A stretch of 64,000 bases of DNA from Corallococcus soli (lineage in GTDB: Bacteria > Myxococcota > Myxococcia > Myxococcales > Myxococcaceae): positions 160,367-224,366 of the forward strand of contig NZ_JAAIYO010000008.1 of NCBI RefSeq assembly GCF_014930455.1, in the 5' to 3' direction. The notes beneath the pieces were generated by a model. The model did no database searches, was not told where the DNA came from, and was given only the letters and a program-made list of their open reading frames with translations. The position numbers and the translations under genes are program-made. Positions 30,589 through 53,072 of the stretch are shown piece by piece; position 1 is the stretch's first letter, and each line of letters opens with the position of its first letter.

Positions 30589-30663
30589 GCGGGAATAGCT
30601 CAGCGGTAGAGCATCGCCTTGCCAAGGCGAGGGTCGAGGGTTCAAATCCCTTTTCCCGCTCCA
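30589..30663 (+). tRNA. tRNA-Gly (anticodon GCC)
   Basis: Cloverleaf: acceptor stem GCGGGAA/TTCCCGC, D-arm AGCTCAGCGGTAGAGC, anticodon loop CTTGCCAAG, T-arm GGTTCAAATCC, 3' CCA. Confidence 0.9.
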
Positions 30664-30670
30664 AAAATAA

Positions 30671-30709
30671 AGGCCCTCTGGGAAACCAGGGGGCCTTTTT
30701 CTTTTCCGG
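30671..30709 (+). terminator. rho-independent terminator after tRNA-Gly
   Basis: GC-rich hairpin GGCCCTCTGG / CCAGGGGGCC followed by a T-rich tract. Confidence 0.6.
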
Positions 30710-30819
30710 GAGGGGCGTCGCGGCGGCGTCCAGCGGCAGCGCGGCGCACCGGGGCGAGCGGCCGGATGGGCGGGCCCGCGAGCGCATGGAAGTCCCGTTG
30801 CTCACCTCTTCCGCTTCGC

Positions 30820-31620
30820 ATGATGTATGGATGGCCCTGCATGCTTCGCAACCTGCGTGAGCTCTACCAATACCGGGGCCTCCTGCTCAGCCTGACCCAA
30901 CGGGAGCTCAAGGCGCGGTACCGGAATTCGGTGCTCGGCTTCCTGTGGACGTTCCTCAACCCCATGCTGCAGATGGGCGTCTACTCCCTGCTCTTCACCG
31001 TCTACATGCGGCAGAACATCCCGGGGTACACGTACTTCGTGTTCGTGGGGCTGCTGCCGTGGATCTGGTTCGCCACGTCGCTGGGGGGCGGTGCCAGCTC
31101 CATCAGTGATCGGCGCGACCTGCTCACCAAGGTGCGCTTCCCCGCGCAGGTGCTGCCGGCCACGGTGGTGGTGACCAACCTGTGCAACTACGTGCTGTCG
31201 CTGCCCCTGATGCTGGGGCTGGGGCTGCTCCTGGGCTACGTGCCCACGTGGCACGTGGTGGCCTTCCCGGTGGTGCTGCTCACCCAGCTGAGCATCACGG
31301 TGGCGCTGGTCTACATCGTGTCCGCGCTGAACGTGACGTTCCGGGACCTGCAGCAGATCATCGGCAACCTGCTGACCATGTGGTTCTTCGTCACGCCCGT
31401 CTTCTACCAGGTGCACACGCTGCCCGAGGCCGCGCAGGGGCCGCTCGTGCTGCTCAACCCGATGGCGGTGATGGTGACGTCCTACCAGGCCATCTTCTAC
31501 GAGCACCAGCTCCCCCAGCCCGGCCCGCTCCTCCTGTGGATGGGCATCTCCATGGGGCTGCTCTGGGTGGCCGCCGGCATCTTCGAGCGTCGGCGCGAGG
31601 ACTTCGCGGAGTTCATATGA
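30820..31620 (+). CDS. wzm: ABC-2 type polysaccharide export permease (O-antigen exporter, Wzm)
   Basis: Six-TM ABC-2 permease (RELKARYRNSVLGFLWTFLNPMLQMGVYSLLF). Alternative start at 30841. Its stop overlaps the wzt start (ATGA). Confidence 0.85.
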   Translation: MMYGWPCMLRNLRELYQYRGLLLSLTQRELKARYRNSVLGFLWTFLNPMLQMGVYSLLFTVYMRQNIPGYTYFVFVGLLPWIWFATSLGGGASSISDRRDLLTKVRFPAQVLPATVVVTNLCNYVLSLPLMLGLGLLLGYVPTWHVVAFPVVLLTQLSITVALVYIVSALNVTFRDLQQIIGNLLTMWFFVTPVFYQVHTLPEAAQGPLVLLNPMAVMVTSYQAIFYEHQLPQPGPLLLWMGISMGLLWVAAGIFERRREDFAEFI

Positions 31621-32927
31621 GCAGCGACATCGCGTCGCCAGACGCCATCGTCCTGCGGAACGTGGTGAAGCGCTTCCGCAAGAGCACCATCCGCCGCGAG
31701 TACACCACCATCAAGTCGGAGCTCATCCGCATGCTCCGGGGCAAGCGCGACGTGGACGGCAAGTCCATGATCGAAGCGCTCCGGGGCGTGGACCTCGTGG
31801 TGCCCCGTGGCAAGACGGTGGGCATCATCGGGCGCAACGGCTCCGGCAAGAGCACGTTGCTCAAGCTCATCTCCGGCATCTACACGCCCACGACGGGCAC
31901 CATCGACATCCACGGGCGCATCAGCGCGCTCCTGGACCTGGGCGCGGGCTTCCACCCGGACTTCTCCGGCCGGGAGAACATCCTCATCAACGGCATCATC
32001 CTGGGCATGACGCGCGCCGAGGTGAAGTCCCGGATGCAGGACATCATCACCTTCAGCGAGCTGGGCGACTTCATCGACGAGCCGGTGCGCACCTACTCCA
32101 GCGGCATGTACATGCGGCTGGCGTTCTCGGTGGCCACGCACGTGGATCCGGACATCCTCATCATTGATGAGATCCTGGCCGTGGGCGACGAGCACTTCGG
32201 CAAGAAGAGCCTCGCGAAGATGACGGAGTTCAAGCGGGCCGGGAAGACCATCGTCATCGTCACCCACGACCTGGGGACGCTGGAGCGCTGGTGCGACCTG
32301 GGGGCGTGGATCGACGCCGGCCGCATCCGCGAGTTCGGTCCTCCCGCGGACGTCATCAAGAGCTACAAGCGCGCGGTGGAACTGGCCGAAGAGCGGGGCA
32401 TGTCCATGGAGTCGCCCGCGCTGGCGTCGGATGGCGGGGCCCTGCCTTCGCTCGCGGCGCCCATCGCCGCGCCGTCGCCGCTGGAGCTGGACGCGGTGCG
32501 GCTGCTGCGCCGGGACGGCACCCCGGCCGAGTGGGTGGACACCGAGGACGGGGTGGAGCTGTGCGTGGGGTTCACCACCCGGACGTCCTCGCCGGCGCTG
32601 GGCTTCGGCCTGGAGCTGACGCGCGCGGACGGGGTGGTCGTCTACGGCACGAACACCTTCGTGGAGCGCGTGCCCTTCCACGCGGAGACGCCTGGAAGCG
32701 GGACGGTGCGCTTCGTCGTCGACCGGCTGGGGCTCACCGTGGGGCGCTACGCCTTCACGGTGACGGTCCAGGACGCGGCCGGGCAGGTGCTGCAGAAGCG
32801 CGAAGCCGCGTGTTCCTTCGAGGTGCGCTCCGGTGTCCAGGACGTGGGCGTGACGCGGCCCGTGCATCGCTGGGTCGTGGAGGGTGTCGGGGCGCGCGTG
32901 GCGCAGGTGCGAGACGTAGGCTCGTGA
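31617..32927 (+). CDS. wzt: O-antigen ABC transporter ATP-binding protein (Wzt) with a C-terminal carbohydrate-binding extension
   Basis: Walker A (GRNGSGKST). Signature motif (YSSGMYMRLAF). Walker B (ILIIDE). ~170-aa C-terminal beta-rich domain as in Wzt proteins that recognise capped O-antigen. Confidence 0.85.
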   Translation: MSSDIASPDAIVLRNVVKRFRKSTIRREYTTIKSELIRMLRGKRDVDGKSMIEALRGVDLVVPRGKTVGIIGRNGSGKSTLLKLISGIYTPTTGTIDIHGRISALLDLGAGFHPDFSGRENILINGIILGMTRAEVKSRMQDIITFSELGDFIDEPVRTYSSGMYMRLAFSVATHVDPDILIIDEILAVGDEHFGKKSLAKMTEFKRAGKTIVIVTHDLGTLERWCDLGAWIDAGRIREFGPPADVIKSYKRAVELAEERGMSMESPALASDGGALPSLAAPIAAPSPLELDAVRLLRRDGTPAEWVDTEDGVELCVGFTTRTSSPALGFGLELTRADGVVVYGTNTFVERVPFHAETPGSGTVRFVVDRLGLTVGRYAFTVTVQDAAGQVLQKREAACSFEVRSGVQDVGVTRPVHRWVVEGVGARVAQVRDVGS

Positions 32928-33775
32928 GCGGGCGGGATGCGGCAGGCCGGGGGGAGCCGGGCATCTGGCTGGGCATCGTGCTGTACCGGAACCCGGCGCG
33001 GGAGCTGGAGCGACTCCGCGCTTCGCTCCAGTGGAACCGCGACGCCGCGGGCGCTCCCGCCTTCCGCGTGGTGTGGCTGGACAACTCGCCGGACGACTCG
33101 CTGCGGGCGGTGGTGGGCGGCCTGGATGCGCGGGCGGACTACCGGTACTCCGGACAGAACCTGGGCTTCGGCGGTGCGCACAACCGGCTGATGGCGGAGG
33201 CCTTCGGGAAGGCCGGGGCGCGCCACTACATCTGCGTGAACCCGGATGGGGTGCTGCACCCGGACTGCGTGCGGGAGCTGGTCCACGAAGCGGACCGGCA
33301 GTCGGACACCGGCCTGGTGGAGGCGCGCCTGTTCCCGGATGAACACCCCAAGCCGTATGACCCGGCGACAGGGGAGACGCCCTGGTGCAGTGGGTGCGTG
33401 CTGCTCGTCACGCGGAAGCTGCATGCGCGGGCGGGCGGCTTCGACGAGCGCTTCTTCATGTACTGCGAGGACGTGGACCTGTCGTGGCGCGCCCGGGGCC
33501 TGGGGCTGTCCATCCGGGTGGCTCCGGCGGCACGCGTGCACCACTACACCGTCACCCGCGAGGAGAGCCCGCTGCGGGAGCGGATGGTGCGCCGCAGCGC
33601 GGCCCTCCTGGGGGCGAAGTATGGGAATGCCGCCTTCATGCACGACCGCCTCCGGGAGTACGCCGCGCTGGGAGGCGAGCCGTTCGCCGTGCCGGAGCTG
33701 GTGAAGCCGGGATGGCGCCTCTCGCGGATCGCCGAATTCGGCCACCACCTGGAGTTCGCGCGGAGGCGCTGGTGA
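32924..33775 (+). CDS. family 2 glycosyltransferase (rhamnosyltransferase-like)
   Basis: GT2 features (LGIVLYRN...VVWLDNSPDDS...FMYCEDVDLSWR). GTG start overlaps the wzt stop (GTGA). Confidence 0.75.
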   Translation: MSGRDAAGRGEPGIWLGIVLYRNPARELERLRASLQWNRDAAGAPAFRVVWLDNSPDDSLRAVVGGLDARADYRYSGQNLGFGGAHNRLMAEAFGKAGARHYICVNPDGVLHPDCVRELVHEADRQSDTGLVEARLFPDEHPKPYDPATGETPWCSGCVLLVTRKLHARAGGFDERFFMYCEDVDLSWRARGLGLSIRVAPAARVHHYTVTREESPLRERMVRRSAALLGAKYGNAAFMHDRLREYAALGGEPFAVPELVKPGWRLSRIAEFGHHLEFARRRW

Positions 33776-37522: not shown

Positions 37523-39765
37523 GTGAGGATCGACACGGAAGCCGCGGACACAGGTTGTCGCGGCGCATGCGGGAGACCCTGCATCAGGTTCACCGGGGGC
37601 TGACGCGGCCCACGGTTCACCTGACGCCAGCTCCTGGCGCGGGGGTGACCGCCGAGCACGGCGGTCCCTTCGAGTGGCGCGCGGACGGCGCCGGGGCCCA
37701 CCTGGCGCTTCTTCCCGGCGCGGCGGCCCTGCCCACGGGGTGGACGGAGTTCTCCTTCCGGCTCCTGACCGGGGAGGCCGGCGCCGCGTCGCCCGTGCTC
37801 ATCGTGGACACGGACGTCGCTGGAGCCGAGCAGAGCATCCGCCTGCCGCTCGACGCCGACGGTCGTGCGCGGATGCTCGTCCGTCTTCCAGAGGCCGTGC
37901 TCGCCCTGCGCCTGGGCCCGGTGAACGGCCCCACGCGCTTCCACCTGTCCGACGTGCGCGCGGTGCAGGTGGCGCCCGCGGAAGCCGCGGTGCGCATGAC
38001 GTGGCCCCTGGCGCTGCGACTCGCGCGGGAGCCCGAGCGCATTCCGCGCGTGGCCCGCCGTTACCTGGACGCGCTGCGCACCGGGGGCCTGCGGGCCGTG
38101 GACGGCGTGCTGGGCCAGAAGTCCAACGGCCATCTCTCGCTCGAAAGCTACGAGGCTTGGGTTCGCCAGTACGACACGCTCGGTGACGCGGACCGGGAGG
38201 CGCTCCGCCACGCGGCGGAGGCGTTCGCCTGGAAGCCGCTCGTGTCCGTGGTGATGCCGACCTACAACACCCCGGAGGTGTGGCTGCGGCGTGCCATCGA
38301 CTCCGTGCGCGCGCAGCTCTATCCGCACTGGGAGCTGTGCATCGCGGACGACGCCTCCCGTCAACCGCACGTGCGCGCCGTGCTGGAGGAATACGCCCGG
38401 CGCGATGCCCGCATCCGCTACGTCGTCCGGCCCGCCAATGGGCACATCTCCGCGGCCTCCAACTCCGCCCTGGAGCTGGTCCAGGGCCAGTTCATCGCGC
38501 TCCTGGACCATGACGACGAACTCACGGAGGACGCCCTGCTCCGGGTGGTGGAGGTCCTCAACGCGCACCCCGACGCGGACATCGTCTACAGCGACGAGGA
38601 CAAGATTGATCCGCAGGGTCGCCGATTCGATCCGTACTTCAAGCCCGCGTTCAACCTGGACCTTTTCCGCACCCAGAACCTCATCAGCCATCTGGGCGTC
38701 TACCGCACGGAGCGCGTGCGCGAGGTGGGCGGCTTCCGCGTGGGCTTCGAAGGCAGTCAGGACCACGACCTGGCCCTGCGCGTGGTGGAGCGCACCTCGG
38801 CGGATCGCATCCAGCACGTTCCGCGCGTGCTCTACCTCTGGCGCGCCATCCCCGGCTCCACCGCGCTGGACGCGGGGGAGAAGAGCTATGCCAGCATCGC
38901 GGCGAGCAGGGCGCTCCAGGAGCACCTGGACCGGACGGAGCCTGGCGCGCGCCTTGAACCGGGACCCAACGCCTCGCTCCACCGCGTCCGCCACCCGCTC
39001 CCCACGCCCAGGCCCCACGTCACGGCCATCCTCCAGGCCCGCACGGCCTCCGAGGCCATGGTTCGTCTGGACGCCTGGCGGGCCACCGCGGAAGGGTGGG
39101 ACGTGGATTGGCGCGTGGCCTCGGGAAGTCCTGAGCGGGCCTCCCTGTCCGCCAACGAAGCCGCGCGCGACGCCCCTGGCGAAGTGCTCATCTTCCTCGC
39201 CGCGGACCTCTCTCCGGAGGGGGCGGACTGGCTCGCGGAGCTGGTCTCGCAGGCCCTGCGGCCGGAGGTGGGCGCCGTGGGCGCGAAGCTGCTCGCGCCG
39301 GACGGTCGCGTCGAACACGCGGGCTTCGTGCTGGGCATGGGCGCGGATGGCGTCGCCGGAGGTCCGTACCGGGGCCTGTCCCGCGAATCCACCGGCCATA
39401 TCGGTCGCGCGGCGGTGCAGCAGCGGGTGTCCGCGGTCAGCGCGGCGTGCCTCGCCGTGCGACGAAGCGTCTTCGAGCGCGTGGGAGGCTTCGACGCGGC
39501 CGTCCTGCCCGGGCCCTGGCGCGACGTGGACCTGTGCCTGCGGCTCGCGCAGCACGGCCTGATGACCGTCTGGACGCCGCACGCGGTGTTGATCCACACG
39601 ACCGCCCCCATGTCACCTGATGCGGACCCGCTGTCCTCGTCAGCGGCCACCGCGTTCAAGGCCCGGTGGAAAGAAACAGTGGGCGATGAGCCCTTCCACA
39701 GCCCCAACCACGCACTGGGAAATGGCCCCCTGCGCTTCGCCTGGCCACCTCGCCGGGCGCGTTGA
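37519..39765 (+). CDS. multidomain family 2 glycosyltransferase (tandem paralogue)
   Basis: GT2 motifs (VSVVMPTYNTP...CIADDAS...LLDHDDELTEDAL...DEDK). ATG overlaps the upstream stop (ATGA). Confidence 0.7.
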   Translation: MSEDRHGSRGHRLSRRMRETLHQVHRGLTRPTVHLTPAPGAGVTAEHGGPFEWRADGAGAHLALLPGAAALPTGWTEFSFRLLTGEAGAASPVLIVDTDVAGAEQSIRLPLDADGRARMLVRLPEAVLALRLGPVNGPTRFHLSDVRAVQVAPAEAAVRMTWPLALRLAREPERIPRVARRYLDALRTGGLRAVDGVLGQKSNGHLSLESYEAWVRQYDTLGDADREALRHAAEAFAWKPLVSVVMPTYNTPEVWLRRAIDSVRAQLYPHWELCIADDASRQPHVRAVLEEYARRDARIRYVVRPANGHISAASNSALELVQGQFIALLDHDDELTEDALLRVVEVLNAHPDADIVYSDEDKIDPQGRRFDPYFKPAFNLDLFRTQNLISHLGVYRTERVREVGGFRVGFEGSQDHDLALRVVERTSADRIQHVPRVLYLWRAIPGSTALDAGEKSYASIAASRALQEHLDRTEPGARLEPGPNASLHRVRHPLPTPRPHVTAILQARTASEAMVRLDAWRATAEGWDVDWRVASGSPERASLSANEAARDAPGEVLIFLAADLSPEGADWLAELVSQALRPEVGAVGAKLLAPDGRVEHAGFVLGMGADGVAGGPYRGLSRESTGHIGRAAVQQRVSAVSAACLAVRRSVFERVGGFDAAVLPGPWRDVDLCLRLAQHGLMTVWTPHAVLIHTTAPMSPDADPLSSSAATAFKARWKETVGDEPFHSPNHALGNGPLRFAWPPRRAR

Positions 39766-39970
39766 TTCGCCCGCTGGAGAAAGCCGCGGTGCTGGTTCCC
39801 TCCCTGTGGGGCGAGCGGCCTGCCAGTCTTGACGCTCCCCAGGTGTGATGACATGGAAGGGCTTTCACCATTGGGGGGCGCCTGTTCGAGACTCCGCCTC
39901 CCGCGCCAACGCCTGGATAGGGGGGCGTGCCTTCCATTCGCGAGGGCCGCGTCTTTCCGACACCACGACC

Positions 39971-42900
39971 ATGCACCCACTGCTCAATCCCCTGGAACAC
40001 CCTCTCAGCCTGACGCTCCCCAATCGGCTGCTGGCCTCCTCCGCGTGGGTGGAGCACGTCCCGTTCGCGATGTTCATCGTGGACCTGCTCCGGCCCGGGA
40101 CGCTGGTGGAGCTGGGGACGCACACCGGGGTGTCGTACTCCGCGTTCTGCCAGGCGGTGGACGCGCTGAAGCTGGAGACCCGGTGCCACGCGGTGGACAC
40201 GTGGCAGGGGGACCCGCACGCCGGATTCTACGGTCCGGATGTGCTCGCGGACCTGCGCGCGCACCATGACCCGCTCTACAGCGGGTTCTCCCAACTGCAC
40301 CAGATGACCTTCTCCGAGGCCGCCAGCGCCTTCGCGGACGGCTCCATCGACCTGCTCCACATCGACGGCTGCCACGAATACGAGCAGGTGAAGGCGGACT
40401 TCGAAGAGTGGCTGCCCCGGATGAGCCCGCGCGGCGTCATCCTCTTCCACGACACCCGGGTGCGGGAGCGCAACTTCGGCGTCTGGCGGCTGTGGGAGGA
40501 GATCTCGGGCCGCCATCCCTCCTTCGAGTTCTTCCATGGCCACGGCCTGGGCGTCCTCGCCGTGGGGGCGGAGCAGCCGGAGGGTCTGCGCGCGCTGGTG
40601 GAGACCCGGGGCGAGGACCGGGAGCGCGTGAAGGCGGCCTTCGCCGCCCTGGGCGCGCGGCTGTCGCTCCTCTTGGAGGGACAGACCCTCAGGACGGAGT
40701 ACGGCCGGGTGAGCCAGCAGGTCGCGGAGGGCGCGCAGCGGCTGGAGCGGCTCCAGGCGGAACTGGAGGCCTCCAACCAGCGGGCACACGGCGCCGCCGC
40801 CGACCTGCGGGAGCAGCAGGGGCGGCTCGCCAGGATGAGCCTGACCCAGCAATTGCTGCAGGAGGAGCTGGCGCGCAAGAACGCGCGCCTCGCGGAACTT
40901 GATGCGTTGGCATCGCACCAGGGAAGCCAGCTGGCGCACATCTCCGGGAGCCTCGCCTGGAAGACCATCAACCGGTACTGGTCCGTGCGCGAGCGCGTGC
41001 TGCCACCCGGCACACGGCGCGGCAACCTCTACCAGCGCGGCAAGCGGACGCTGCACTCCGTGGGCGCGAAGCTGGTGGAACTGCCCGCCGCGCGCCGCAC
41101 GGCCCGTGCGCTCAAGAGCGCCGCGGCCACGGTCGTCGTCCCGGCGCACACCCCGCCCCCGCCCCCTCCGGCACCCTGGACCCTGCCTCTGACGGAGCGC
41201 TCGCAGGCGAGCATGGGTCGGCGCGTGCTCATCATCGCGGAGCTGTCGCTGCCCCAGTGCAAGCGCTACCGCGTGGACCAGAAGGTCGCGATGTTCCACC
41301 GGCTGGGCTACGAGGTCACCGTCCTGCCGTGGAATGACCACGTGGAGTGCAAGACGGCGCTCCAGTTCCACGGCCTGGTCATCTACTACCGGGTCCCGGC
41401 GTTCCCTTCGGTGGTGGAGACCCTGGAGGAGACGAAGCGCCTGGGCATTCCCCACTTCTTCGACGTCGACGACCTCATCTTCGACGTGGAGGAGTACCAG
41501 CGGAACAGCAACGTGCAGCGCCTGCCCCAGGAGGAGCGAGACCTGCTGCTCAGCGGCGCCGCGCTCTACCGCAAGACGCTCAGCCTCTGCGAGCATGGCA
41601 TCGCCAGCACGCCGACCATCGCGGAGCACATGGCGCGCGTCGTTCCCGGGAAGGTCTACGTCGTCGAGAACTGCCTGGACGACGGCATCCTGGAGCTCGC
41701 CCGGGAGATGGAGCAGCGGCCGTTCTCGGTGGATCCGGGCACGATCACCATCGGCTACGGCAGCGGCACCCGCACGCATGACGCCGACTTCACCATCGCG
41801 GCGGACGCCATCCTCGCGGTGATGGAGCGCCACGCGAACGTGCGTCTGGCCATCCACGGCTTCCTGGAGTTGCCCAAGGACTTCGAGCGCGTCTCCGAGC
41901 GCGTCTTCCGCATCCCGTTCCTGGACGCGGATGACTACCTGCGGGCGCTCGCGTCGTGGCAGATCAGCATCGCGCCGCTGGAGCCCACGGTCTTCAACGA
42001 CGCCAAGAGCAACATCAAGTTCATCGAGGCGTCCATCTTCCGCGTGCCCGCGGTGTGTTCGGGCGCGGGACCGTTCCGTGAGATCGTCGAACACGGCCGC
42101 AACGGGATGATCGCCACGACCCGCGAGGAGTGGGAGTCCGCCCTGTCCGCGCTGGTGGAGGACGCCGCCTTGCGCCAGCGGCTGGGCGAGGAGGCGCACC
42201 GCAGCGTGATGGCGCGCTACCACCCCGCGGTGGTGGCCACCGAACGGCTCCAGCCCGTCCTTTCGCACCTGCCGCCCGCGCCCCCGCCGCGCCTCAAGGT
42301 GTTGGAGGCCAACGTCCTCTTCGCGCCGCTGAGCTTCGGCGGGGCCACGCTCGTCGCCGAACAGGTGGCGCACCGGCTCCAGGCGGAGGGCTGCGACGTC
42401 ACCGTGTTCACCGGCATCATGAACTCGCCGCTGCCGGCCTACACGGTGGTTCGCTACGAGACGCAGGGCCTGCCCGTCATCGCCACGCAGCTTGTGCACG
42501 GCGGTGACCGCGCGCTCGACTACCAGAACCCGCGCATGGGGACGACGTTCGTCCAGGTCCTCAAGACCGTGCGCCCGGACGTGGTGCACTTCCACTCCAT
42601 CCAGATGCTGAGCGCGTCGCTGGCGACGGCGTGCGCCGCGGAAGGAATCCCCTACACCATCACCCTGCACGACGCGTGGTGGCTGTGCGAACGCCAGTTC
42701 ATGGTCAAGGAGGACGCCACCTACTGCAACCAGAAGGGCATCGACCTGCGCGTCTGCTCCAAGTGCGTGCCGGACACCCGCTTCACCTTCAAGCGCACGG
42801 TCGCGCTGCGCAAGGTGCTGGACGGCGCGGCCCTGCTGCTCACGCCCAGCGAGTTCCAACGCCAGCTCTACATCGCCAACGGCATCGCGCCGGAGCGCAT

Positions 42901-43522
42901 CGTCGTGAACAAGAACGGCGTGCTGCTGCCCACGCAGCCCCGGCCCACGCGGGATGAGCAGTCCCCGGTGCGCTTCGCCTACCTGGGCGGGCGCGCGGTG
43001 CACAAAGGCTACTTCTGGCTCAAGGACATCCTCGAGGCAATGCCAGAGTCCCGCTACGTCCTGAAGATGACCGACATCCAGCTGCGCATGGGGTCGGCGT
43101 CCATCGACGCGAAGGACTGGAAGGTGGCAGGTGGCGTGGAAGTCGTCCCTCCGTATGATCAGGACGGCCTGGATGCCTTCTTCGAAGGCATTGACGTGTT
43201 GCTCATGCCCTCCCAGTGGAAGGAGAGCTTCGGCCTGGCGGTGCGCGAGGCGTTGGCCCGCGATGTCTGGGTCGTCACCACGGCGTCAGGCGGCGTCACC
43301 GAGGACATCGTGGAGGGCATCAACGGCAACATCCTGGAGATTGGCGACCGGGAAGGCTTCAGCCGCGTGCTGCGCGACCTGATCGCCCACCCGGAGCGGC
43401 TGGCGCGCTACCGCAATCCCAAGCGCGCCACCGTGCGCGACTATGTGAAGCAGGCCCAGGAGCTCCGGACCCTGCTGGATGGTATTGTGAGCAACCCGGT
43501 CCAGAAGCGGGCCGCGAGCTGA
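39971..43522 (+). CDS. fusion protein: N-terminal class I SAM-dependent methyltransferase, coiled-coil, C-terminal GT1/GT4 glycosyltransferase domains
   Basis: MTase core ([12 protein letters not shown]...[13 protein letters not shown]). ~100-aa coiled coil ([33 protein letters not shown]...). Two GT-B-like regions. An upstream in-frame ATG at 39845 is possible. Confidence 0.7.
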
Positions 43523-43556: not shown

Positions 43557-44447
43557 ATGGAGACTCCCGTGCGTCTTTCCCAACTGCGGTCACTGATTCC
43601 AAGCTCGTTCAAGTCGGTCATCCGTGAGTCGCTGGGCGTCGCCCAGCTCCACACCCGCCTGTCCGAAACCGAGAACCAGCTGGCGGCGGTGCGCGAGCGC
43701 CTGGGCCCATCCCCGTCCCCGTCCCCGTCCCCGTCCCCGTCCCCTGCGCCCACGACGGCCCTGCCCGGCATCACCCGGGAGCTCATCGCGGCCCAGTACC
43801 TCCGGGGTGAAGGTCTGGAGGTCGGGGCCCTCCACAACCCGACGAAGGTGCCCGCGGGAGTCCGGGTCCGCTACGTGGACGTGGCGCCCATTGAAGTGCT
43901 GCGCGCCCGGTTCCCGGAGGCTGGGGACCGCATCACGGTGCCCGACATCGTGGACAACGGGGAGGAGCTGGGCCGGGTGGCGACGTCATCCCAGGACTTC
44001 ATCATCGCCAACCACTTCCTGGAGCACTGTGAAGATCCCATCGGCGCGATGAAGAACTTCATCCGCGTGCTGAAGCCGGGGGGCATCATCTTCATGGCCG
44101 TCCCCGACAAGCGCTTCACCTTCGACAGCGTCCGGGACGTCACCACCACCGAACACGTGGTGGAGGATCACCTGAAGGGCCCGGAAGTGTCCCGCCGCGA
44201 CCACTACGACGAGTGGCTGCGCATCATCGACAAGAAGAGCGGCGATGAGCTGGCGCACCTGACGAACCTGTTCGTCCAGGACCGCGTGAACATCCACTTC
44301 CACGTATGGACCTTCGACGGGATGTTCGAGCTGTTCTCCGCGGCCAGGAACCGGGTGGGCCTGCCCTTTGATATCAAGATGGCCTTCCTGGACCCGCCCT
44401 GCCTGGAGGTGGTGTGGATCCTGGAGGTCACCAAGCCGCGGGACTGA
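43557..44447 (+). CDS. class I SAM-dependent methyltransferase with an (SP)n linker
   Basis: Methyltransf_11/23-like core (FIIANHFLEHCEDPIGAMKNFIRVLKPGGIIFMAVPD). SPSPSPSPSPSP is encoded by a perfect hexanucleotide repeat. Confidence 0.75.
   Translation: METPVRLSQLRSLIPSSFKSVIRESLGVAQLHTRLSETENQLAAVRERLGPSPSPSPSPSPSPAPTTALPGITRELIAAQYLRGEGLEVGALHNPTKVPAGVRVRYVDVAPIEVLRARFPEAGDRITVPDIVDNGEELGRVATSSQDFIIANHFLEHCEDPIGAMKNFIRVLKPGGIIFMAVPDKRFTFDSVRDVTTTEHVVEDHLKGPEVSRRDHYDEWLRIIDKKSGDELAHLTNLFVQDRVNIHFHVWTFDGMFELFSAARNRVGLPFDIKMAFLDPPCLEVVWILEVTKPRD
43709..43744 (+). repeat. perfect (TCCCCG)x6 hexanucleotide microsatellite inside the coding sequence, encoding (SP)6
   Basis: Direct read of the sequence at 43707-43745. 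Confidence 0.9.
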
Positions 44448-44450
44448 GCC

Positions 44451-45845
44451 TCACACCGCGCCGTAGTAGCGCTGGTACACCGTGGTGAGCGTCACGCCGA
44501 CGGACAGCGCGATGAAGCCGGCGATCAACACCGGCTTGAGCCGCGCCAGCGTGCGCGGTGCCCACGCGGGCGGGGCCAGGGCCACCACCAGCAGGGGCGC
44601 ATAGGGCAGCAGGTAGCGGCCCTGCACGCCGTCCACGCGGTCCGCTCCCGGAGGCGTCCACGCCAGGTAGAGCATGGCCTGGATGGCGAGCACGCCCGCC
44701 ACGGCGACGCCCAGCGCCACCACGCGCACGCGCCAGCCCACCGTGGGCGAGGGGGCCGCGTCCAGCGCCATCACCCCCAGCAGCAGCGCGCCCAGGCCCA
44801 GCAGCACGGGCCTCGACACCGGAGTGTCCAGCCAGCCGAGCACGCCGCCCGCCTGATGGAGGAAGTCCGGCAGCCGCGTCCAGAAGTCCGACACCAGCAC
44901 CCCCATCACCTGGAACGGGTGCGCGCGGACATGGGCCACCTGCGCCACCACTTCGCTCGGACGGAAGATGTCCCTCACCGTGCTGGACCACGCGAACTGG
45001 AGCAGCGCGGGGACGGCCACGACGGCGACGACGGCCAGCGCATAGCGTCCGGGTGTCCCCATCCGGGTGAGCGGCAGCAGCAGGAACACCAGCGTCAGGG
45101 GCAGGTAGGCCTGCTTGCACAGGGCCACGAACACCGCGCTCAAGAGCAGCAGCCCCAGCTGCTTCGCCCCGAGCGGCCCCGGGTGCGCGAAGGTGTAGTG
45201 CAGCGATAGCGCCACCAGCAGCAGGCACGCCGACAGGGTGATGGGGTCCGCGGACACCGAGGCCCGCTGGAACAGCACCATGGGCGTGAGCGCCAGCAGC
45301 GCGAACGCCCACCGCTGGAAGGGCATCAGCCGCAGCGCCAGCGCCGTGAGCGCCAGCGCCACCAGCACGTTGCCCAGCCGGCCCGCCCACAGCACCACCA
45401 CCGGCGGCGCCTCCAGGATTCGCGCGGGCGCCATGCCCAGCGACTGAGGGAAGTACACCAGCGGGAAGTAGATGGCGGACGCGGCGAAGTGCCACTCCAC
45501 GGTATCCCGGGGCGCGAGCGCGGCGTGCATGGCGTCGCGCAGGCGCTGCCGGTCCTGCCGCACGTTGGCGTGACCCCCGACCCCCTCCGACACGTGCTCC
45601 GCCACCTGGACCACGCTGCGCGGAAGCTGCCCGCCCGCGGACGCCGTCGGAAGCCGCGTGGCCGTCAGCTGGCCCTCGGAGATTTGATACGCCCGGAAGA
45701 AGTGCGCCGGTTCGTCCGCCACCTGGAACGGGGGCGTGAGGAAGCTCAGCACCCCGCCCAGCACGGCGGCCACGACCAGGAAGACGTTGATGGGCGCGAT
45801 GAAGAACGGGCGCAGGGGAGACGGGGTCGGCGAAGACGCGAGCAT
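44451..45845 (-). CDS. DUF2142-like polytopic membrane protein (putative GT-C fold glycosyltransferase)
   Basis: ~11 predicted TM helices and periplasmic loops. Context: adjacent DUF2304 and polyprenyl-phosphate GT2 genes. Start at the internal Met (45845); the ORF extends to 45947. Confidence 0.55.
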   Translation of the reverse strand: MLASSPTPSPLRPFFIAPINVFLVVAAVLGGVLSFLTPPFQVADEPAHFFRAYQISEGQLTATRLPTASAGGQLPRSVVQVAEHVSEGVGGHANVRQDRQRLRDAMHAALAPRDTVEWHFAASAIYFPLVYFPQSLGMAPARILEAPPVVVLWAGRLGNVLVALALTALALRLMPFQRWAFALLALTPMVLFQRASVSADPITLSACLLLVALSLHYTFAHPGPLGAKQLGLLLLSAVFVALCKQAYLPLTLVFLLLPLTRMGTPGRYALAVVAVVAVPALLQFAWSSTVRDIFRPSEVVAQVAHVRAHPFQVMGVLVSDFWTRLPDFLHQAGGVLGWLDTPVSRPVLLGLGALLLGVMALDAAPSPTVGWRVRVVALGVAVAGVLAIQAMLYLAWTPPGADRVDGVQGRYLLPYAPLLVVALAPPAWAPRTLARLKPVLIAGFIALSVGVTLTTVYQRYYGAV

Positions 45846-45870
45846 GGAAGGGGAGTCGTTCCGCGAAGGC

Positions 45871-46281
45871 TCAGGCGGCGTGGGGGTCGTGCCGGGCGGC
45901 GGCGGGGACGGAGTCGGAGCGGGGCGGGGCGCGCGCGAGGCGCTCATGCTCCGTGGAGGTGAGCAGGGCCACCTCCTGCGCCAGCCGCTTGAGCTGCTGG
46001 CGCTGCTCCGCCACCTGGAGGCTCAGCCGGTACACGACCCACATCAGGGCCGACAGGGCGAGGAAGAAGAGGGCCGAGGGCGCGTAGTAGATGCCCATGG
46101 CCGACGCCAGCGTGTCGATGCCATGGCGCCACAGGGACAGGCCCGCGATGGTCGCGGCGACCAGCAACCAGGCGAAGGTATGACGCTCGTTGGTGCGCCG
46201 GCCTCGGGCCGACCACAGCACCGTGAACGCGAAGGCGGCCGCGAAGGCAACGCCAATGAGGCTGGAGCGAAGCATGGGCAT
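45871..46281 (-). CDS. DUF2304-like small membrane protein (GT2-associated)
   Basis: 136 aa, with two TM helices then a coiled coil (MPMLRSSLIGVAFAAAFAFTVLW...QRQQLKRLAQEVALL). Its start overlaps the upstream GT2 stop by 1 nt (TGATG). Confidence 0.5.
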   Translation of the reverse strand: MPMLRSSLIGVAFAAAFAFTVLWSARGRRTNERHTFAWLLVAATIAGLSLWRHGIDTLASAMGIYYAPSALFFLALSALMWVVYRLSLQVAEQRQQLKRLAQEVALLTSTEHERLARAPPRSDSVPAAARHDPHAA

Positions 46282-46979
46282 CAGACGGGACGGACCCGCT
46301 CCATGAGGAGGGCGAAGGACACCTTCGCCATGTAGAAGGCCGACTTCCACGGCGTCAGCGAGCTGGTACCGGTGAGGCGCGGCCGCATGCGCACGGCCAC
46401 CTCCGCGATGGGGAAGCCCTGCCGCGCCGCCATGAGGACGCTCTCGGGTTCCGGGTAGTCGTGGGGGTGGGTGCGCGCGAAGAAGCGGATGGCCTGGGGC
46501 CCGAAGCCCCGGAAGCCGGAGGTCGGGTCGGTGATGCGCTGGCGGCTCAGCGTGGACAGCAGCCCCGCGAGGAACTGGTTGCCGAAGCGGCGCAGCCACG
46601 TGGAGCGGAAGCTCGCGACCCCCGCGAACCGGCTGCCGATGACGAGCTCCACGCCAGACTGGAGCGCCTCGCGCAGGGCAGGGACGGAGGCCGGATCATG
46701 CTGGCCGTCGCCGTCCATGCGGATGACCTGTGCGTAGCCGTGCCGCGAGGCGTAGAGCAGGCCGCTTGCCTCACCCGCGGCGACGCCCAGGTTGAAGGGA
46801 TGGGTCAGGACGAATGCGCCAGCGGCCCGGGCACGCTCCGCCGTCTGGTCCCGCGAGCCGTCGTCCACGACGAGCACGTCCAGGTCCGGCAGGGCTTCAC
46901 GCAGCTCCGCCACCGTGGTGGCGATGCATTCCTCTTCGTTGAAGGCCAGCAACACGATGAGGCCCCGTCGGGTGTCCAT
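46281..46979 (-). CDS. polyprenyl-phosphate glycosyltransferase, family 2 (GtrB/PpgS/DPM1-like)
   Basis: LIVLLAFNEEECI...VLVVDDGSRD...DGDGQHDP. DXD-type GT2 with no TM domain. Confidence 0.8.
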   Translation of the reverse strand: MDTRRGLIVLLAFNEEECIATTVAELREALPDLDVLVVDDGSRDQTAERARAAGAFVLTHPFNLGVAAGEASGLLYASRHGYAQVIRMDGDGQHDPASVPALREALQSGVELVIGSRFAGVASFRSTWLRRFGNQFLAGLLSTLSRQRITDPTSGFRGFGPQAIRFFARTHPHDYPEPESVLMAARQGFPIAEVAVRMRPRLTGTSSLTPWKSAFYMAKVSFALLMERVRPV

Positions 46980-47888: not shown

Positions 47889-49518
47889 GCGTGCGTCCTC
47901 CTTCGTCCAGGGCCCGGGCCACGTCCGCCGCGAGCGCGTCCACATCCTGGCCGGGCTTCAGCTCCCACAGTCGGGACCCCAGCGCACCGCGAACCCCCGC
48001 ATCCGGCGCGCGAGGGGGCTCCCAGAGGCCCCAGGCGCGGGCCTGGACCTGGGCCGCCGTCCTGCGCGCCACCTCTTCATCCGCGCCAGCGAACAGCACG
48101 GGGCCGGTGACGGAGCACACGCCCGTCTCCAGGGACGAGGACGGAGGCACGTCCTGGCGCATCCGGGAGGCCGGCTCATCCGGCGTGAAGTGCCACACCG
48201 GGGTGCCGTCCTGCGATGACTCGCGGGGGGAAAGCTGCAGCGGCATCACCTGACGCCTCACCGTCCAGAGCCGTGCTCCGGGCAGCCGGTCCACCACGGC
48301 GCGCGCCAGTCGCGACATGGGCGCGTCCGGGGCCGTGTCGAAGCCCGGGCAGACCACGGTGGCGCCGTCCGGGCCTTGCTTCGAGGGGGCCGGGGCCCGG
48401 CCCTCCAGGAACGGGGCCAGGGCTTCTCGCACGCGCCGTGCGACCGTCGGCTGGTCCAGCGGGGTCAGCCGCTCGCGCTGGGCGGCCACCACCCTCGCGC
48501 GCAGGCCAGCGTCGCGCTCCAGCACCGCGAGCAGCCCCGCCACCTCCACGGGGTCGTCCGACAGCGTGGTGAGGCCCGCGCCGCCCATGGTCTCCGGCAC
48601 CGCCGCGGCGCCATACGCCACCACCGGCACGCCCCGGTACATCGCCTCCAGCAGGGGCACGCCGAAGCCCTCGTGGCGGCTCATGGACAGGTAGGCCGTG
48701 GCGGAGGCGAAGCACGCGGAAAGCTGCGCCGCGTCCACCCGGCCCAGGAACACGACGCGCTCGGGGCCCAGCTGCTCGCATAGCGCGAGCACGGTCGCGT
48801 CATAGAGGGTGTCGCGGCGCAGCGTCCCCGCCACCAGCAGCCGGCTGCGCGGCTGGTACAGGCGCTGATACGCGGTGAAGACGCGCAGCACGTCCTCCAG
48901 GCGCTTGCTGGGCACCATGCGGCCCACGAACAGGACGTTCGCGCACCCGTCCTCCATCTGCGCCTGGAGCGCCGGATCCGCCGGCACGTCGAAGGCGTTC
49001 CAGTCCACCGCGAAGGGCAGCACCGCCGCGTCCCGGTAGCCCGCCGCGGCCAGCTCCTCCGCGCTGAAGTGTGAGTAGGCCCACGCGTGCGTCACGTGGT
49101 CGCGCAGCGCCCGCAGCTCCTCGCGCGCCTGCGCGCAGCCGCTCATCACGTTGCGATCCACGCCCTCGAAGAACCGGGCCGGCGTGACGTTGTGGTACAG
49201 CAGCGCCTTGCGCCCCTTCGCCCGCGCCACGAGCGGGACGAGGCGCGACTGGAAGCTGTGGTGGACGAGCAGCGCGCTGTCGGCGCGGGCCTCGCGCGGG
49301 TAGTCCCGGGCCGGGCGCACCTGATCGCGGCAGGCCTCGTCCCACTGGGCCGCGTAGATCTCCGACGCGTAACCCCAGCCGCGCAGCAGGTCCCGCAGGT
49401 AGCGCACCTGGTTGCCCACGGCGTCGCCCCACGCGAGGTGCGCGACCAGCTGGTGGACCCCTCCGACGCTCGGTGAGGCGGTCCCTTGCTTGCTGTTCCA
49501 GAGGCTCACGGTGACCAT
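47878..49518 (-). CDS. family 1 (GT4-type) glycosyltransferase with a C-terminal extension
   Basis: GT-B C-terminal domain motifs (VLFVGRMVPSKRLEDVL...SMSRHEGFGVPLLEAMYRGVPVVA). ATG at 49518, or GTG at 49536. Confidence 0.75.
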   Translation of the reverse strand: MVTVSLWNSKQGTASPSVGGVHQLVAHLAWGDAVGNQVRYLRDLLRGWGYASEIYAAQWDEACRDQVRPARDYPREARADSALLVHHSFQSRLVPLVARAKGRKALLYHNVTPARFFEGVDRNVMSGCAQAREELRALRDHVTHAWAYSHFSAEELAAAGYRDAAVLPFAVDWNAFDVPADPALQAQMEDGCANVLFVGRMVPSKRLEDVLRVFTAYQRLYQPRSRLLVAGTLRRDTLYDATVLALCEQLGPERVVFLGRVDAAQLSACFASATAYLSMSRHEGFGVPLLEAMYRGVPVVAYGAAAVPETMGGAGLTTLSDDPVEVAGLLAVLERDAGLRARVVAAQRERLTPLDQPTVARRVREALAPFLEGRAPAPSKQGPDGATVVCPGFDTAPDAPMSRLARAVVDRLPGARLWTVRRQVMPLQLSPRESSQDGTPVWHFTPDEPASRMRQDVPPSSSLETGVCSVTGPVLFAGADEEVARRTAAQVQARAWGLWEPPRAPDAGVRGALGSRLWELKPGQDVDALAADVARALDEGGRTHAR

Positions 49519-49632
49519 GGCGTTTACAACCGGCACGCACCGGCGACAAGTGGGCGCGGCCTTGCCTTGACGGGGCTCCCCTGCCTCCGCTACGGAGGGC
49601 GCTTTCTCCTGCGTCCGAGTGGTGGCTTGTCA

Positions 49633-50658
49633 ATGAACGTCCTGGTGACAGGGGGCTGCGGCTTCATCGGCTCCAATCTGGTGAAGTACCTGCGTCGCGA
49701 GCGGCCCGACTGGAAGATCGTCAACCTCGATAAGCTCACCTACGCGGGCAACCTCGAGACGCTCGCGGACCTGGAAGGCGACCCGAAGCACGTCTTCGTG
49801 CGCGGCGACATTGGCAACCGCGAGCTGGTGGAGCACCTGATGGTGCAGCACTCCATCAACGCGGTGATGCACCTGGCGGCGGAGAGCCACGTGGACCGCT
49901 CCATCCTGGGGCCGGAGATCTTCGTCACCACGAACGTGCTGGGCACCCAGCAGCTGCTGGAGGCCAGCCGGGCGCGCGGCGTGAAGCGCTTCCTGATGGT
50001 CTCCACGGACGAGGTGTACGGCTCGCTGGGCCCCACGGGCGCGTTCACGGAAGCCTCGCCCCTGCAGCCGTCCAGCCCGTACTCGGCGTCGAAGACGAGC
50101 TCGGACCTCATCGCGCTGGCGTACCACCACACGTTCAAGATGGACGTGGTGGTGACGCGCTGCTCGAACAACTACGGCCGCTACCAGTTCCCGGAGAAGC
50201 TCATCCCGCTGATGGTGGTGAACGCGCTGCACGACAAGCCGCTGCCCGTCTACGGCGACGGCGCCAACGTGCGCGACTGGCTCCACGTCGAGGACCACTG
50301 CCAGGGTCTGCTCGTGGCGCTGGAGAAGGGCCGGCCGGGCGAGGTCTACAACATCGGCGGCGGCTCCGAGCGTCGCAACATCGAGATCGTCAAGGGCATC
50401 CTGGGCCTGCTGGGCAAGCCCGAGTCGCTCATCCAGTACGTGGCGGATCGCCCCGGGCATGACCGGCGCTACGCCATCGACCCGACGAAGATCCGCACGG
50501 AGCTGGGCTGGAAGGCGAACCACACCTTCGAGCAGGGGCTGGCGGACACGGTGAAGTGGTTCGTGGAGAACCGCGCCTGGTGGGAGCGGGTGACGAGCGG
50601 CGCGTACCGCCAGTACTTCGACACGCAGTACCGGACCCGCCTCCAGGGGCGGGGCTAG
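49633..50658 (+). CDS. rfbB: dTDP-glucose 4,6-dehydratase
   Basis: MNVLVTGGCGFIGSN. YxxxK in YSASKTSSD. High overall RmlB similarity. Confidence 0.9.
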   Translation: MNVLVTGGCGFIGSNLVKYLRRERPDWKIVNLDKLTYAGNLETLADLEGDPKHVFVRGDIGNRELVEHLMVQHSINAVMHLAAESHVDRSILGPEIFVTTNVLGTQQLLEASRARGVKRFLMVSTDEVYGSLGPTGAFTEASPLQPSSPYSASKTSSDLIALAYHHTFKMDVVVTRCSNNYGRYQFPEKLIPLMVVNALHDKPLPVYGDGANVRDWLHVEDHCQGLLVALEKGRPGEVYNIGGGSERRNIEIVKGILGLLGKPESLIQYVADRPGHDRRYAIDPTKIRTELGWKANHTFEQGLADTVKWFVENRAWWERVTSGAYRQYFDTQYRTRLQGRG

Positions 50659-50661
50659 GCC

Positions 50662-51561
50662 ATGCGCCTTCTGGTCACGGGGGCCAACGGCCTGGTGGGC
50701 AGCCGCGTCTGCGTGCTGCTGACGCAGCAGGGGCACGACGTGGTGGGGCTGGGGCGCGGTCCCCGGCGCACGGGCGGGACGCACCGCTACGTGGAGGTGG
50801 ACCTGACGCGTGAGGCGGACGTGGCCGCGGCCATCGCCGCCGCGGCGCCCGAGGTGATCATCCACCCCGCCTCCATGACGGAGGTGGACGCCTGCGAGAA
50901 GGACCCGGAGGCCGCCTTCGCGGCGAACGTCACCGCCACGGCGGCGGTGGCCCGGGGCGCCCGCGCGCTGGGCGCGCACCTGGTGCATGTGTCCACGGAC
51001 TACGTGTTCGACGGGGACGCGGGCCCGTACTCCGAGGACGCCCTGCCGAACCCCAAAGGCGTGTACGCGCTCACCAAGCACATGGCGGAGCAGGCGGCGC
51101 GCACCTTCGTGCCGGGCTGCGCCATCGCGCGCACGGCGGTGGTGTACGGCTGGCCGGCGGCGGGGCGTCCCAACTTCGGCGCCTGGCTGGTGGGCGCGCT
51201 GGAGAAGGGGCAGCCCGTGAAGCTCTTCGAGGACCAGGTGGTGTCCCCGAGCTTCGCGGACAGCGTGGCCGCGATGCTGGCGGAGCTGGGCGTGCGGCGG
51301 CTGGGCGGGGTGTGGAACACCTGCGGCGGCACCGTCATCGACCGGGTGGGGTTTGGCCGGGCGCTGTGCGAGGTGTTCGGCTTCGACGCGTCGCTCATCA
51401 CGCCCACGCGCATGGCGGACCTGAAGCTCGCGAGCCCCCGGCCGCTGCGCAGTGGCCTGACGACGGACAAGGTGCGCGCGGAGCTGGAAGCCAAGCCGCT
51501 GGCGCTGCCCGAATCGCTGGCGCGCTTCCACGCGGCCTGGAAGGCGAACCGTCCCGTTTGA
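50662..51561 (+). CDS. rfbD: dTDP-4-dehydrorhamnose reductase
   Basis: MRLLVTGANGLVGSR, and a YALTKHMAE (YxxxK) motif. RmlD-like. Confidence 0.85.
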   Translation: MRLLVTGANGLVGSRVCVLLTQQGHDVVGLGRGPRRTGGTHRYVEVDLTREADVAAAIAAAAPEVIIHPASMTEVDACEKDPEAAFAANVTATAAVARGARALGAHLVHVSTDYVFDGDAGPYSEDALPNPKGVYALTKHMAEQAARTFVPGCAIARTAVVYGWPAAGRPNFGAWLVGALEKGQPVKLFEDQVVSPSFADSVAAMLAELGVRRLGGVWNTCGGTVIDRVGFGRALCEVFGFDASLITPTRMADLKLASPRPLRSGLTTDKVRAELEAKPLALPESLARFHAAWKANRPV

Positions 51562-51648
51562 TCATCCGCGCGTGGCGGCCGACCGCGCGCATCCCTCCAC
51601 GCGCCCTTCCGGGACTCCGGGACGGGCCGTGGAATGCAAGGAGCATCC

Positions 51649-52530
51649 ATGAAGGGAATCGTTCTCGCGGGCGGCTCGGGCACGCGCCTGTATCCGCTGA
51701 CGCGCGTGGTGAGCAAGCAGCTCTTGCCCGTCTACGACAAGCCGATGATCTACTACCCGGTGACGACGCTGATGCTGGCGGGCATCCGGGAGATCCTCAT
51801 CATCTCCACGCCGCAGGATCTGCCGCGCTTCCGCGAGCTGCTGGGCGACGGTGAGCAGTGGGGCGTGCGCTTCCAATACGCGGAGCAGCCGAAGCCGGAG
51901 GGGCTGGCGCAGGCCTTCGTCATCGGCCGGGACTTCGTGGGCAAGGATCCGGTGTCGCTCATCCTGGGCGACAACATCTTCTACGGCCACGGCATGGGAG
52001 AGCTCACGCAGCGGGCCTCACGGCGCACGCAGGGCGCGACGGTGTTCGGCTACTACGTGAAGGATCCGGAGCGCTACGGCGTGGTGGAGCTCAACGCGCA
52101 GCACCAGGCGGTGAGCATCGAGGAGAAGCCGGCGAAGCCGAAGTCGCACTACGCCGTCACGGGGTTGTACTTCTACGACAACCAGGTGGTGGACATCGCC
52201 GCCAACCTCAAGCCCGGACGGCGCGGTGAGTATGAAATCACCGACGTGAACGCGGAGTACCTGCGGCGCGGTGAGCTCAACGTGGAGCTGATGGGCCGCG
52301 GCTACGCGTGGCTGGACACCGGCACGCACGAGTCGCTGATGCAGGCGTCCAACTACATCGAGATCATCGAGCGCCGGCAGGGCCTCAAGGTCGCGTGTCC
52401 GGAGGAGATCGCCTTCCGCATGGGCTACATCGACGACAAGCAGCTGGCGGCGCTGGCGGCGCCCATGCGCAAGAACGAGTACGGCCAGTACCTGTTGGAT
52501 CTCATCGAGAACCGGGGAGCGGTGTCGTGA
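51649..52530 (+). CDS. rfbA: glucose-1-phosphate thymidylyltransferase
   Basis: [18 protein letters not shown]...[12 protein letters not shown]. RmlA signature. Confidence 0.9.
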
Positions 52531-53072
52531 AGGTCACCCCCCTGGAGCTTCCCGAAGTCCTCCTGTTGGAGCCGAAGGTGTTCGGCGACGACCGGGGCTT
52601 CTTCCTCGAGTCCTACAACGCGAAGCGCTACGCGGACGCGGGCATCCCCGGCCCCTTCGTGCAGGACAACCTGTCCCGCTCCGTGAAGGGCACCCTCCGG
52701 GGGCTGCACTTCCAGGAGCCGAACGCGCAGGGCAAGCTGGTGCAGTGCCTGGCGGGCGCGGTGTGGGACGTGGCGGTGGACGTGCGGCGCGGGTCGCCCA
52801 CGTTCGGCCGCTGGGTGGCCGCGGAGCTGTCGTTCGAGAACAAGCGGCAGCTGTGGGTGCCGCCGGGCTTCGCGCACGGCTTCTGCGTGCTGAGCGACTC
52901 CGCGGACTTCTTCTACAAGTGCACCGCGCTATACTCCCCGGAGACCGAGCGCAGCGTGCACTGGAATGATCCGGACCTGGCCATCCCGTGGCCGGTGAGC
53001 GCGCCGCTGCTGTCGGGCAAGGATCAGCAGGCGCCCCGGTTGAAGGACGCCCCCGTCCTGCCCATTTTCTGA
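52527..53072 (+). CDS. rfbC: dTDP-4-dehydrorhamnose 3,5-epimerase
   Basis: Cupin RmlC motifs (FFLESYN...RGLHFQ...[18 protein letters not shown]). GTG overlaps the rfbA stop (GTGA). Confidence 0.9.

Follow-up and report, generated by a model that had tools for sequence, protein, structure and literature searches.

The terminator strategy closest to the case presented here was described by Kelly et al. 2024 (PMC11231755), where the terminator of WbdD, WbbB, O4 ORF7 and O7 ORF6 sits distally on a coiled-coil ruler; the coiled coil is treated there as a marker typical of a terminator-ruler strategy that is described as widespread among bacteria, and polymerase modules are variably spread over several proteins. 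A further described case is WsaE of Geobacillus stearothermophilus, which caps a poly-rhamnan with a 2-O-methyl group and is encoded in a cluster of the order wzm-wzt-glycosyltransferase (GT) genes-rml; the account of WsaE leaves a coiled-coil ruler unmentioned and invokes an additional unknown length factor (PMC2943079). The lipopolysaccharide (LPS) O-antigen of Myxococcus xanthus is Wzm/Wzt-dependent, and Wzt_C was used to find its ATPase (PMC7484181). Here, a gene of Corallococcus soli was analysed that encodes an S-adenosylmethionine (SAM)-dependent methyltransferase, a coiled coil and two GT modules in a single polypeptide. The gene is located in a window of 64,000 nucleotides (assembly GCF_014930455.1, contig NZ_JAAIYO010000008.1, positions 160,367 to 224,366 of the forward strand), and all coordinates are given as positions of this window. 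Judged by its architecture, its genetic context and analogy with WbbB, O7 ORF6, WbdD and WsaE, the protein is probably a terminator methyltransferase that is held away from polymerising GT modules by a coiled-coil ruler and caps a surface polysaccharide with methyl groups.

The open frame extends over 39845-43522 (+), and translation from the ATG at 39971 yields 1183 aa plus stop; the 1184 aa given in the first-pass annotation is right as a number of codons with the stop included and one too many for the protein. The start at ATG 39971 is supported by M1, which at least 90% of 41 full-length homologues share, and the GTG at 39845 was rejected as a start because the homologues begin at the M1 encoded by that ATG. 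Third-position GC of the gene is 0.92, as is usual for real genes in this window of ~71% G+C. An antisense open reading frame (ORF) of 1115 aa (39656-43003, −) was dismissed on third-position GC and Pfam as a high-GC shadow and no gene. The protein was divided into five parts, namely a Methyltransf_24 O-methyltransferase, a 113-residue helix, a basic amphipathic segment with a proline-rich linker, and two GT-B modules. A full-protein AlphaFold2 (AF2) model, computed with an alignment of the 41 homologues, had a mean predicted local distance difference test (pLDDT) score of 84.7 and consisted of a Rossmann methyltransferase, the helix and the two GT-B folds (boundaries in Table 1). Methyltransferase, coiled coil and GT domains were thus located by Pfam, AF2 and heptad scan where the first-pass annotation had placed them, far beyond chance. 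An NCBIfam scan of the protein yielded nothing but GT4 matches below threshold and weak matches to SMC-type coiled coils (residues 232-317).

Methyltransf_24 was matched at residues 46-162 with 97.5 bits against a Pfam cut-off of 26.3 (E 1e-27). All residues of the family-consensus motifs were present (E47-x-G49-x3-G53, D76, D81/H83, H130-x-D132-x2-H135 and H160-D161). The same pattern was identical in 86 of 133 family members, while acidic and glycine positions were decayed in 24 (~18%); since these relatives have lost motif residues, integrity of the motifs is a discriminating test, which the C. soli domain passed. By their position, D132 and D161 are putative metal ligands. The decayed heads (homologues L005, L007, L009, L010, L019, L028, L031, L034, L044 and L071, and P0015-P0023, P0033, P0042 and P0056) look like pseudo-enzymes, with SAM-loop or acidic residues lost and with fold-length, coiled coil and both GT modules kept.

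The best fold match of the N-terminal model was MeT1 of Mycobacterium hassiacum (6g80/6g7d, E 1e-10), a SAM-dependent methyltransferase solved with SAM bound, followed by the Mg-dependent catechol-type O-methyltransferases SafC, COMT and CCoAOMT. MeT1 differs in being a stand-alone enzyme of 218 aa and has 17-18% identity to the C. soli domain. It O-methylates a sugar of a polysaccharide, at the reducing-end O-1 of methylmannose polysaccharide. Sequence searches of the PDB with the full protein and with a methyltransferase profile returned only GT4 matches and one marginal MeT1 match. The WbdD methyltransferase was absent from the best 50 fold matches and the best 60 profile matches, and no WbdD or WbbB chain was found among the PDB sequence matches or the best 50 fold matches to the terminator domain. 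As WbdD is not among the best matches, the likeness to it is functional and not familial; likewise, the likeness to the WbdD, WbbB and O7 ORF6 type is one of architecture and not of common descent of the terminator, ORF6 being compared by description only.

The methyltransferase domain is situated at the N-terminal end of the stalk and the GT modules at the opposite end. The helix comprises residues 214-326 (113 residues) and was uninterrupted in both AF2 models, the second of which was computed for residues 1-350 (pLDDT 91), so that the predicted coiled coil was upheld by the structure prediction proposed in the first-pass annotation. A single unbroken heptad register was detected from ~238 to 328, with 67% L/I/V/M/A at a/d positions; of the top 3% of heptad windows in the protein, nearly all fell within 238-328 and two at 361-362. 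The stalk profile weakly matched the coiled coils of tropomyosin, myosin, SMC and gp26, and the stalk is the sole extended coiled-coil segment among the proteins of the cluster. The calculated length is ~17 nm for the 113-residue helix and ~13 nm for its heptad part.

For comparison between homologues, stalk length was taken as the stretch from the methyltransferase to the S-x-S-W motif that follows the helix (99 aa in C. soli). Across the 41 full-length homologues it ranged from 43 to 172 aa, at 357-367 aa for module 1 and 383-393 aa for module 2. The offset from 99 aa was a multiple of 7 in 26/41 stalks and in 10/22 distinct lengths (binomial p = 4e-4), and fresh tandem repeats of 7, 14 or 21 residues were present in several homologous stalks. 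Close relatives with 73-90% overall identity have stalks of 99 (C. soli), 106 (Pyxidicoccus xibeiensis) and 120 aa (Corallococcus praedator), and in Corallococcus loci the stalk was 47-62% identical where the enzyme modules were 78-87% identical. From these sequence comparisons, the stalk would appear to behave as a rigid, length-tunable spacer, by which a ruler role is not proven.

At the junction behind the stalk, S327 and W330 were conserved in at least 90% of the 41 homologues. Residues 327-410 contain 15 K/R versus 3 D/E and form amphipathic helices with hydrophobic moments of 0.40-0.68; pLDDT fell below 50 at residues 369-395. We infer that the junction is the membrane-proximal end of the protein. 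The profile of module 1 aligned with the C-terminal halves of the GT4-type enzymes PimB' and BshA, and its motif N676, K679, S680, N681, I682, K683, E686 was invariant in the 41 homologues, as was the EX7E pair E1085/E1093 of module 2. In module 2, Glyco_transf_4 (72 bits) and Glycos_transf_1 (81 bits) both scored above the Pfam cut-offs. A Foldseek search with the full model retrieved the retaining GT4 enzymes MshA, GlgM, 7qsg (the methylmannose-polysaccharide mannosyltransferase) and BshA at E 1e-17 to 1e-12 (lowest 5e-17). Four cysteines (C906, C919, C929 and C932) within an insertion in the N-half of module 2 (42686-42766) were invariant; they may form a structural zinc site, and model confidence is lower there (pLDDT 65-75).

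The transporter genes wzm and wzt were found 7-9 kb upstream of the fusion gene on the same strand; Wzt bears a Wzt_C domain, and its ABC_tran and Wzt_C matches were both above the gathering score. With an N-terminal O-methyltransferase and two GT domains encoded in a wzm-wzt-rml cluster, the C. soli protein has the WsaE-type layout. The sugar pathway is complete: the argument that rmlC is lacking and that the sugar is hence not L-rhamnose was ruled out by the presence of rmlC (Table 1).

A protein search gave 2755 relatives at E<=1e-10; among the best 120, Methyltransf_24 occurs together with GT domains in almost every protein. One match, a fragment labelled C. soli, had 100% identity. Orthologues with 89-90% identity were present in Corallococcus sp. 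bb12-1 and C. terminator, and full-length matches in Corallococcus, Pyxidicoccus, Cystobacter, Variovorax, Paraburkholderia, Caballeronia, Rhodopila and Ruegeria. The dual GT-B unit was detected in 398 species genomes; of 80 such loci, 30-33 have wzm/wzt and 20-37 have rml genes within 10 kb of the unit. Some relatives carry WsaF-type (PF21374/PF22772), GT2 or RgpF domains in place of modules. In a Nitrosomonas metagenome-assembled genome (L016, 8010-12340) the architecture is split directly behind the S-x-S-W motif: SRSWRITAPLR is the C-terminus of a protein with PIG-L deacetylase, GT2 and coiled-coil parts, and the stop of its gene overlaps with the start of a second gene, which encodes the basic linker and two GT-B modules. 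This split and the module swaps indicate that the family is modular, in agreement with the account that Kelly et al. give of Klebsiella (PMC11231755). A Methyltransf_11 / GNAT protein is encoded just upstream of the split genes.

Of the described proteins, O7 ORF6 of Klebsiella pneumoniae (PMC11231755) resembles the C. soli protein in that one polypeptide starts with a SAM methyltransferase, the terminator in ORF6 and the putative one in C. soli, continues with a coiled coil and ends in two GT modules; a wzm/wzt/rml cluster, further GTs as separate proteins and, as predicted for C. soli, a rhamnose-containing polymer are shared as well. ORF6 differs by an extra kinase domain, a fold like that of a carbohydrate-binding module and a methyl-phosphate cap, whereas the C. 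soli protein has no room for a kinase, because the helix (from 214) follows almost directly on the methyltransferase (to 211); by description, the ORF6 methyltransferase resembles CgnL, whereas that of C. soli resembles MeT1/COMT, and the ORF6 modules are GT2 (GT-A), whereas those of C. soli are GT-B/GT4. WbbB, known from K. pneumoniae O12 and Raoultella terrigena (Williams et al. 2017, cited after PMC11231755), has an N-terminal distal terminator, a ruler and a C-terminal two-module polymerase in one protein, as is proposed for the C. soli protein; in WbbB the terminator is a beta-Kdo glycosyltransferase (GT99) and the polymerase modules are GT102/GT103.

WbdD (Escherichia coli O9a/O8; K. pneumoniae O3/O5), as described in PMC11231755, has a methyl-based terminator (methyl only in O8/O5), a coiled-coil ruler, which was experimentally shown in WbdD, and a membrane-binding amphipathic region after the coiled coil; the methyltransferase, the stalk and the putatively membrane-binding basic segment of the C. 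soli protein would correspond to these. In that system the C-terminal domain of Wzt reads the cap, and the C. soli Wzt also has Wzt_C; the WbdA polymerase is separate and recruited to WbdD, whereas the C. soli GT modules are fused. WsaE (PMC2943079), which joins an N-terminal O-methyltransferase to two rhamnosyltransferase domains on a single polypeptide, has a Gram-positive S-layer glycan as its target and was compared with the C. soli protein by architecture only. The C. soli protein is a new permutation of these, methyl-only like WbdD of O8/O5, fused like WbbB and ORF6, and with GT-B instead of GT-A modules. The single-polypeptide solution had been called unusual in the first-pass annotation; given WbbB, O7 ORF6 (PMC11231755), WsaE (PMC2943079) and the 2755 relatives, it is not.

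The protein is most likely a cytoplasmic, membrane-peripheral assembly protein of a surface polysaccharide, and the product is most likely an L-rhamnose-containing, ATP-binding cassette (ABC) transporter-dependent LPS O-antigen. The protein would oligomerise through the stalk helix. Its basic segment and its GT modules would be placed at the membrane and there lengthen an undecaprenyl-diphosphate-linked chain, perhaps jointly with the GT2 proteins encoded nearby. A methyl cap would then stop extension and double as the export signal read by Wzt_C, so that the length of the stalk would set a lower bound of chain length. A terminator with a ruler, as proposed in the first-pass annotation, is thus the best-supported reading of the intact motifs, the fold, the heptad helix, Wzt_C and the variation of the stalk, with capping and ruler activity predicted from these features.

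Several observations weigh against this proposal. The second methyltransferase gene, 35 nt downstream, could encode the real terminator or add a second methyl group. At least six other GT modules are encoded in the cluster, so that the two GT-B modules could be just a part of the polymerase or none of it. The stalk and the GT modules are retained by relatives with a decayed methyltransferase, which implies a role of the stalk that is independent of methylation, and methylation by WsaE did not depend in vitro on how long the chain was (PMC2943079). The heptad phase of the stalk was weaker when 80 sequences were counted with cruder regex anchors (34/80 in phase; distinct lengths 10/40, p = 0.05), and a secondary +4 length class appeared in this count. 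Two homologues are located away from any wzm/wzt, and in loci L084 and L012 an intact methyltransferase is paired with a Wzt that lacks the binding domain. These two loci also bear on a co-variation seen in a first count, in which a long Wzt_C-bearing Wzt was present in 10/11 loci with an intact methyltransferase and a Wzt of 258 aa in 6/7 decayed ones; the pattern failed in further loci (L084 and L012 intact without Wzt_C, L081 and L009 degenerate with Wzt_C) and, as it tracks lineages, was not relied on and is weak evidence. 

Among the alternatives, decoration on a scaffold was weighed first. The methyltransferase would add non-terminal O-methyl groups, stoichiometrically or partially, the helix would only oligomerise or scaffold a multi-GT complex, and chain length would be set by the downstream Methyltransf_11 protein or by the balance of polymerisation and export. 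This would fit the second methyltransferase directly downstream with its own helix and (SP)6 tether, the persistence of the coiled coil behind degenerate N-domains, the homologues with a Wzt lacking Wzt_C or without an adjacent transporter, and the length-independent methylation by WsaE (PMC2943079). We nevertheless regard it as unlikely: characterised terminators sit distal to the polymerase on the coiled coil (PMC11231755), the C. soli methyltransferase lies at the stalk end opposite to the GT modules, the C. soli Wzt has Wzt_C, which reads the terminal group in known systems, and variation between 43 and 172 aa is unexpected for a pure dimerisation element.

A terminator with a ruler could also be combined with GT-B modules that do not polymerise but make an adaptor or side branch, the repeat being polymerised by the large GT2 proteins encoded upstream. 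GT modules that are fused to a terminator polymerise in WbbB, O7 ORF6 and WsaE (PMC11231755, PMC2943079), and no part of the family is more conserved or more widespread than the dual GT-B unit (398 genomes), which makes such a division of labour decidedly unlikely, even though two GT2 proteins of ~750 aa and two smaller GT2-like ORFs are encoded between wzt and the fusion gene, large-GT2 homologues co-occur in 41/80 and 22/80 related loci, and polymerase modules are variably distributed among proteins (PMC11231755). That the product is another ABC-exported glycan (for example a polysaccharide that is capsule-like or secreted, or a glycan linked to protein), with the role of the protein unchanged, is highly improbable, since Wzm/Wzt is the O-antigen pathway in Myxococcus, where WaaL (ligase) and WbaP (priming enzyme) are listed apart from it (PMC7484181), and Paraburkholderia homologues lie in rmlBACD-wzm-wzt clusters with a Glycos_transf_4 (PF00953) polyprenyl-phosphate sugar-phosphate transferase; in its favour are that no ligase or priming transferase was found in the examined part of the window, that WsaE acts on an S-layer glycoprotein glycan (PMC2943079) and that a homologous Gluconacetobacter cluster makes an exopolysaccharide (PMC11231755).

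Features of the locus are compiled in Table 1. The Paraburkholderia clusters with PF00953 resemble typical O-antigen clusters.

Table 1. Features of the fusion gene and of the surrounding cluster (window positions; residues are those of the fusion protein)
Feature	Position	Strand	Evidence or remark
Methyltransferase / coiled coil / GT-B / GT4 protein gene	39971..43522	+	ORF, Pfam, AF2, Corallococcus orthologues
Class I SAM O-methyltransferase domain, residues 1-211 (Rossmann core 27-211)	39971..40603	+	Methyltransf_24, motif residues, fold matches
Coiled-coil stalk, residues 214-326, one continuous helix, ~13 heptads	40610..40948	+	AF2, heptad scan, profile matches
Junction: S-x-S-W-[RK] motif helix 328-343, basic amphipathic helices 352-368 and 376-385, Pro-rich disordered linker 386-417	40949..41221	+	
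GT-B module 1, residues 418-770	41222..42280	+	Glyco_trans_1_2 at 615-758; two Rossmann halves in AF2
GT-B module 2, family GT4, residues 776-1175	42296..43495	+	Glyco_transf_4 at 789-984 and Glycos_transf_1 at 1055-1149; AF2
CDP-alcohol phosphatidyltransferase	29805-30494	+	Directly upstream of wzm
wzm, ABC-2 permease	30619..31620	+	ABC2_membrane E 5e-16; true start probably downstream of listed TTG
wzt, ABC ATPase (approximate start)	31620..32927	+	ABC_tran E 2e-21; Wzt_C E 4e-18, ~32484-32855
GT2 of ~270 aa and 472-aa protein with marginal GT2 match	32963-35211	+	Different frames
Two paralogous GT2 proteins, 767 and 748 aa	35219..39765	+	Directly upstream of fusion gene; Glycos_transf_2 E 1e-28, 1e-33
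Stand-alone methyltransferase, 296 aa, Methyltransf_11	43557..44447	+	35 nt downstream of fusion gene; Pfam
DUF2142 membrane protein and 232-aa GT2	44451-46979	−	
rmlB, rmlD, rmlA, rmlC: complete dTDP-L-rhamnose pathway	49486..53072	+	Pfam
rmlC	52527-53072	+	dTDP_sugar_isom E 9e-74; GTG start overlaps rmlA stop

The position of the CDP-alcohol phosphatidyltransferase gene is kept in five related Myxococcaceae loci (93-98% identity). The 472-aa protein appears to have a Rossmann-like N-terminus, and in a plain ORF listing its gene and that of the ~270-aa GT2 are merged with out-of-frame extensions. The 767- and 748-aa GT2 proteins, whose genes show a stop/start overlap, are candidates for further polymerase or adaptor modules; both have an N-terminal region of ~230 aa without Pfam match and a weak second GT2 signal near the C-terminus. 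The Methyltransf_11 protein begins with a helix of ~50 aa, followed by the (SP)6 linker and the catalytic domain, and no relative was found in the PDB by sequence. It has the look of a tethered enzyme and could dock on the coiled-coil protein or on the membrane. A GT4 is also encoded on the opposite strand, together with the DUF2142 protein and the 232-aa GT2, before rmlB. The DUF2142 and GT2 pair looks like a polyprenyl-phosphate-sugar synthase and a membrane glycosyltransferase that adds a side-chain sugar outside the cytoplasm; the pair recurs with GtrA in homologous clusters of Paraburkholderia (L082-L084).

A bolder version of the proposed function is that the C. soli protein is the founding member in myxobacteria of methyl-only fusions, with a COMT/MeT1-like terminator, a ruler and a dual GT-B polymerase, in which stalks are retuned by whole heptads from one close relative to another, heads have become pseudo-enzymes in several lineages and a second methyltransferase may dock on the stalk. 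We consider this doubtful. If it were true, the stalks of 99, 106 and 120 aa would provide the ruler model with a natural allelic series, a decayed capping domain with a persistent stalk would imply a second, non-catalytic role of the N-terminal head, and the stalk-docked downstream methyltransferase might yield a doubly methylated cap.

The fusion design is real but already known from other bacteria and common, and the understanding of chain-length control is unchanged by its finding in C. soli. A functional reading is gained for a large and widespread group of proteins that are labelled merely 'glycosyltransferase' or 'class I SAM-dependent methyltransferase', and the natural variation of the stalk in heptad steps could test the ruler model without engineering. 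According to the title of Perez-Burgos et al. 2019 (cited in PMC7484181), O-antigen affects motility and development of myxobacteria. For C. soli, the O-polysaccharide is predicted to be rhamnose-containing, methyl-capped and of defined length.

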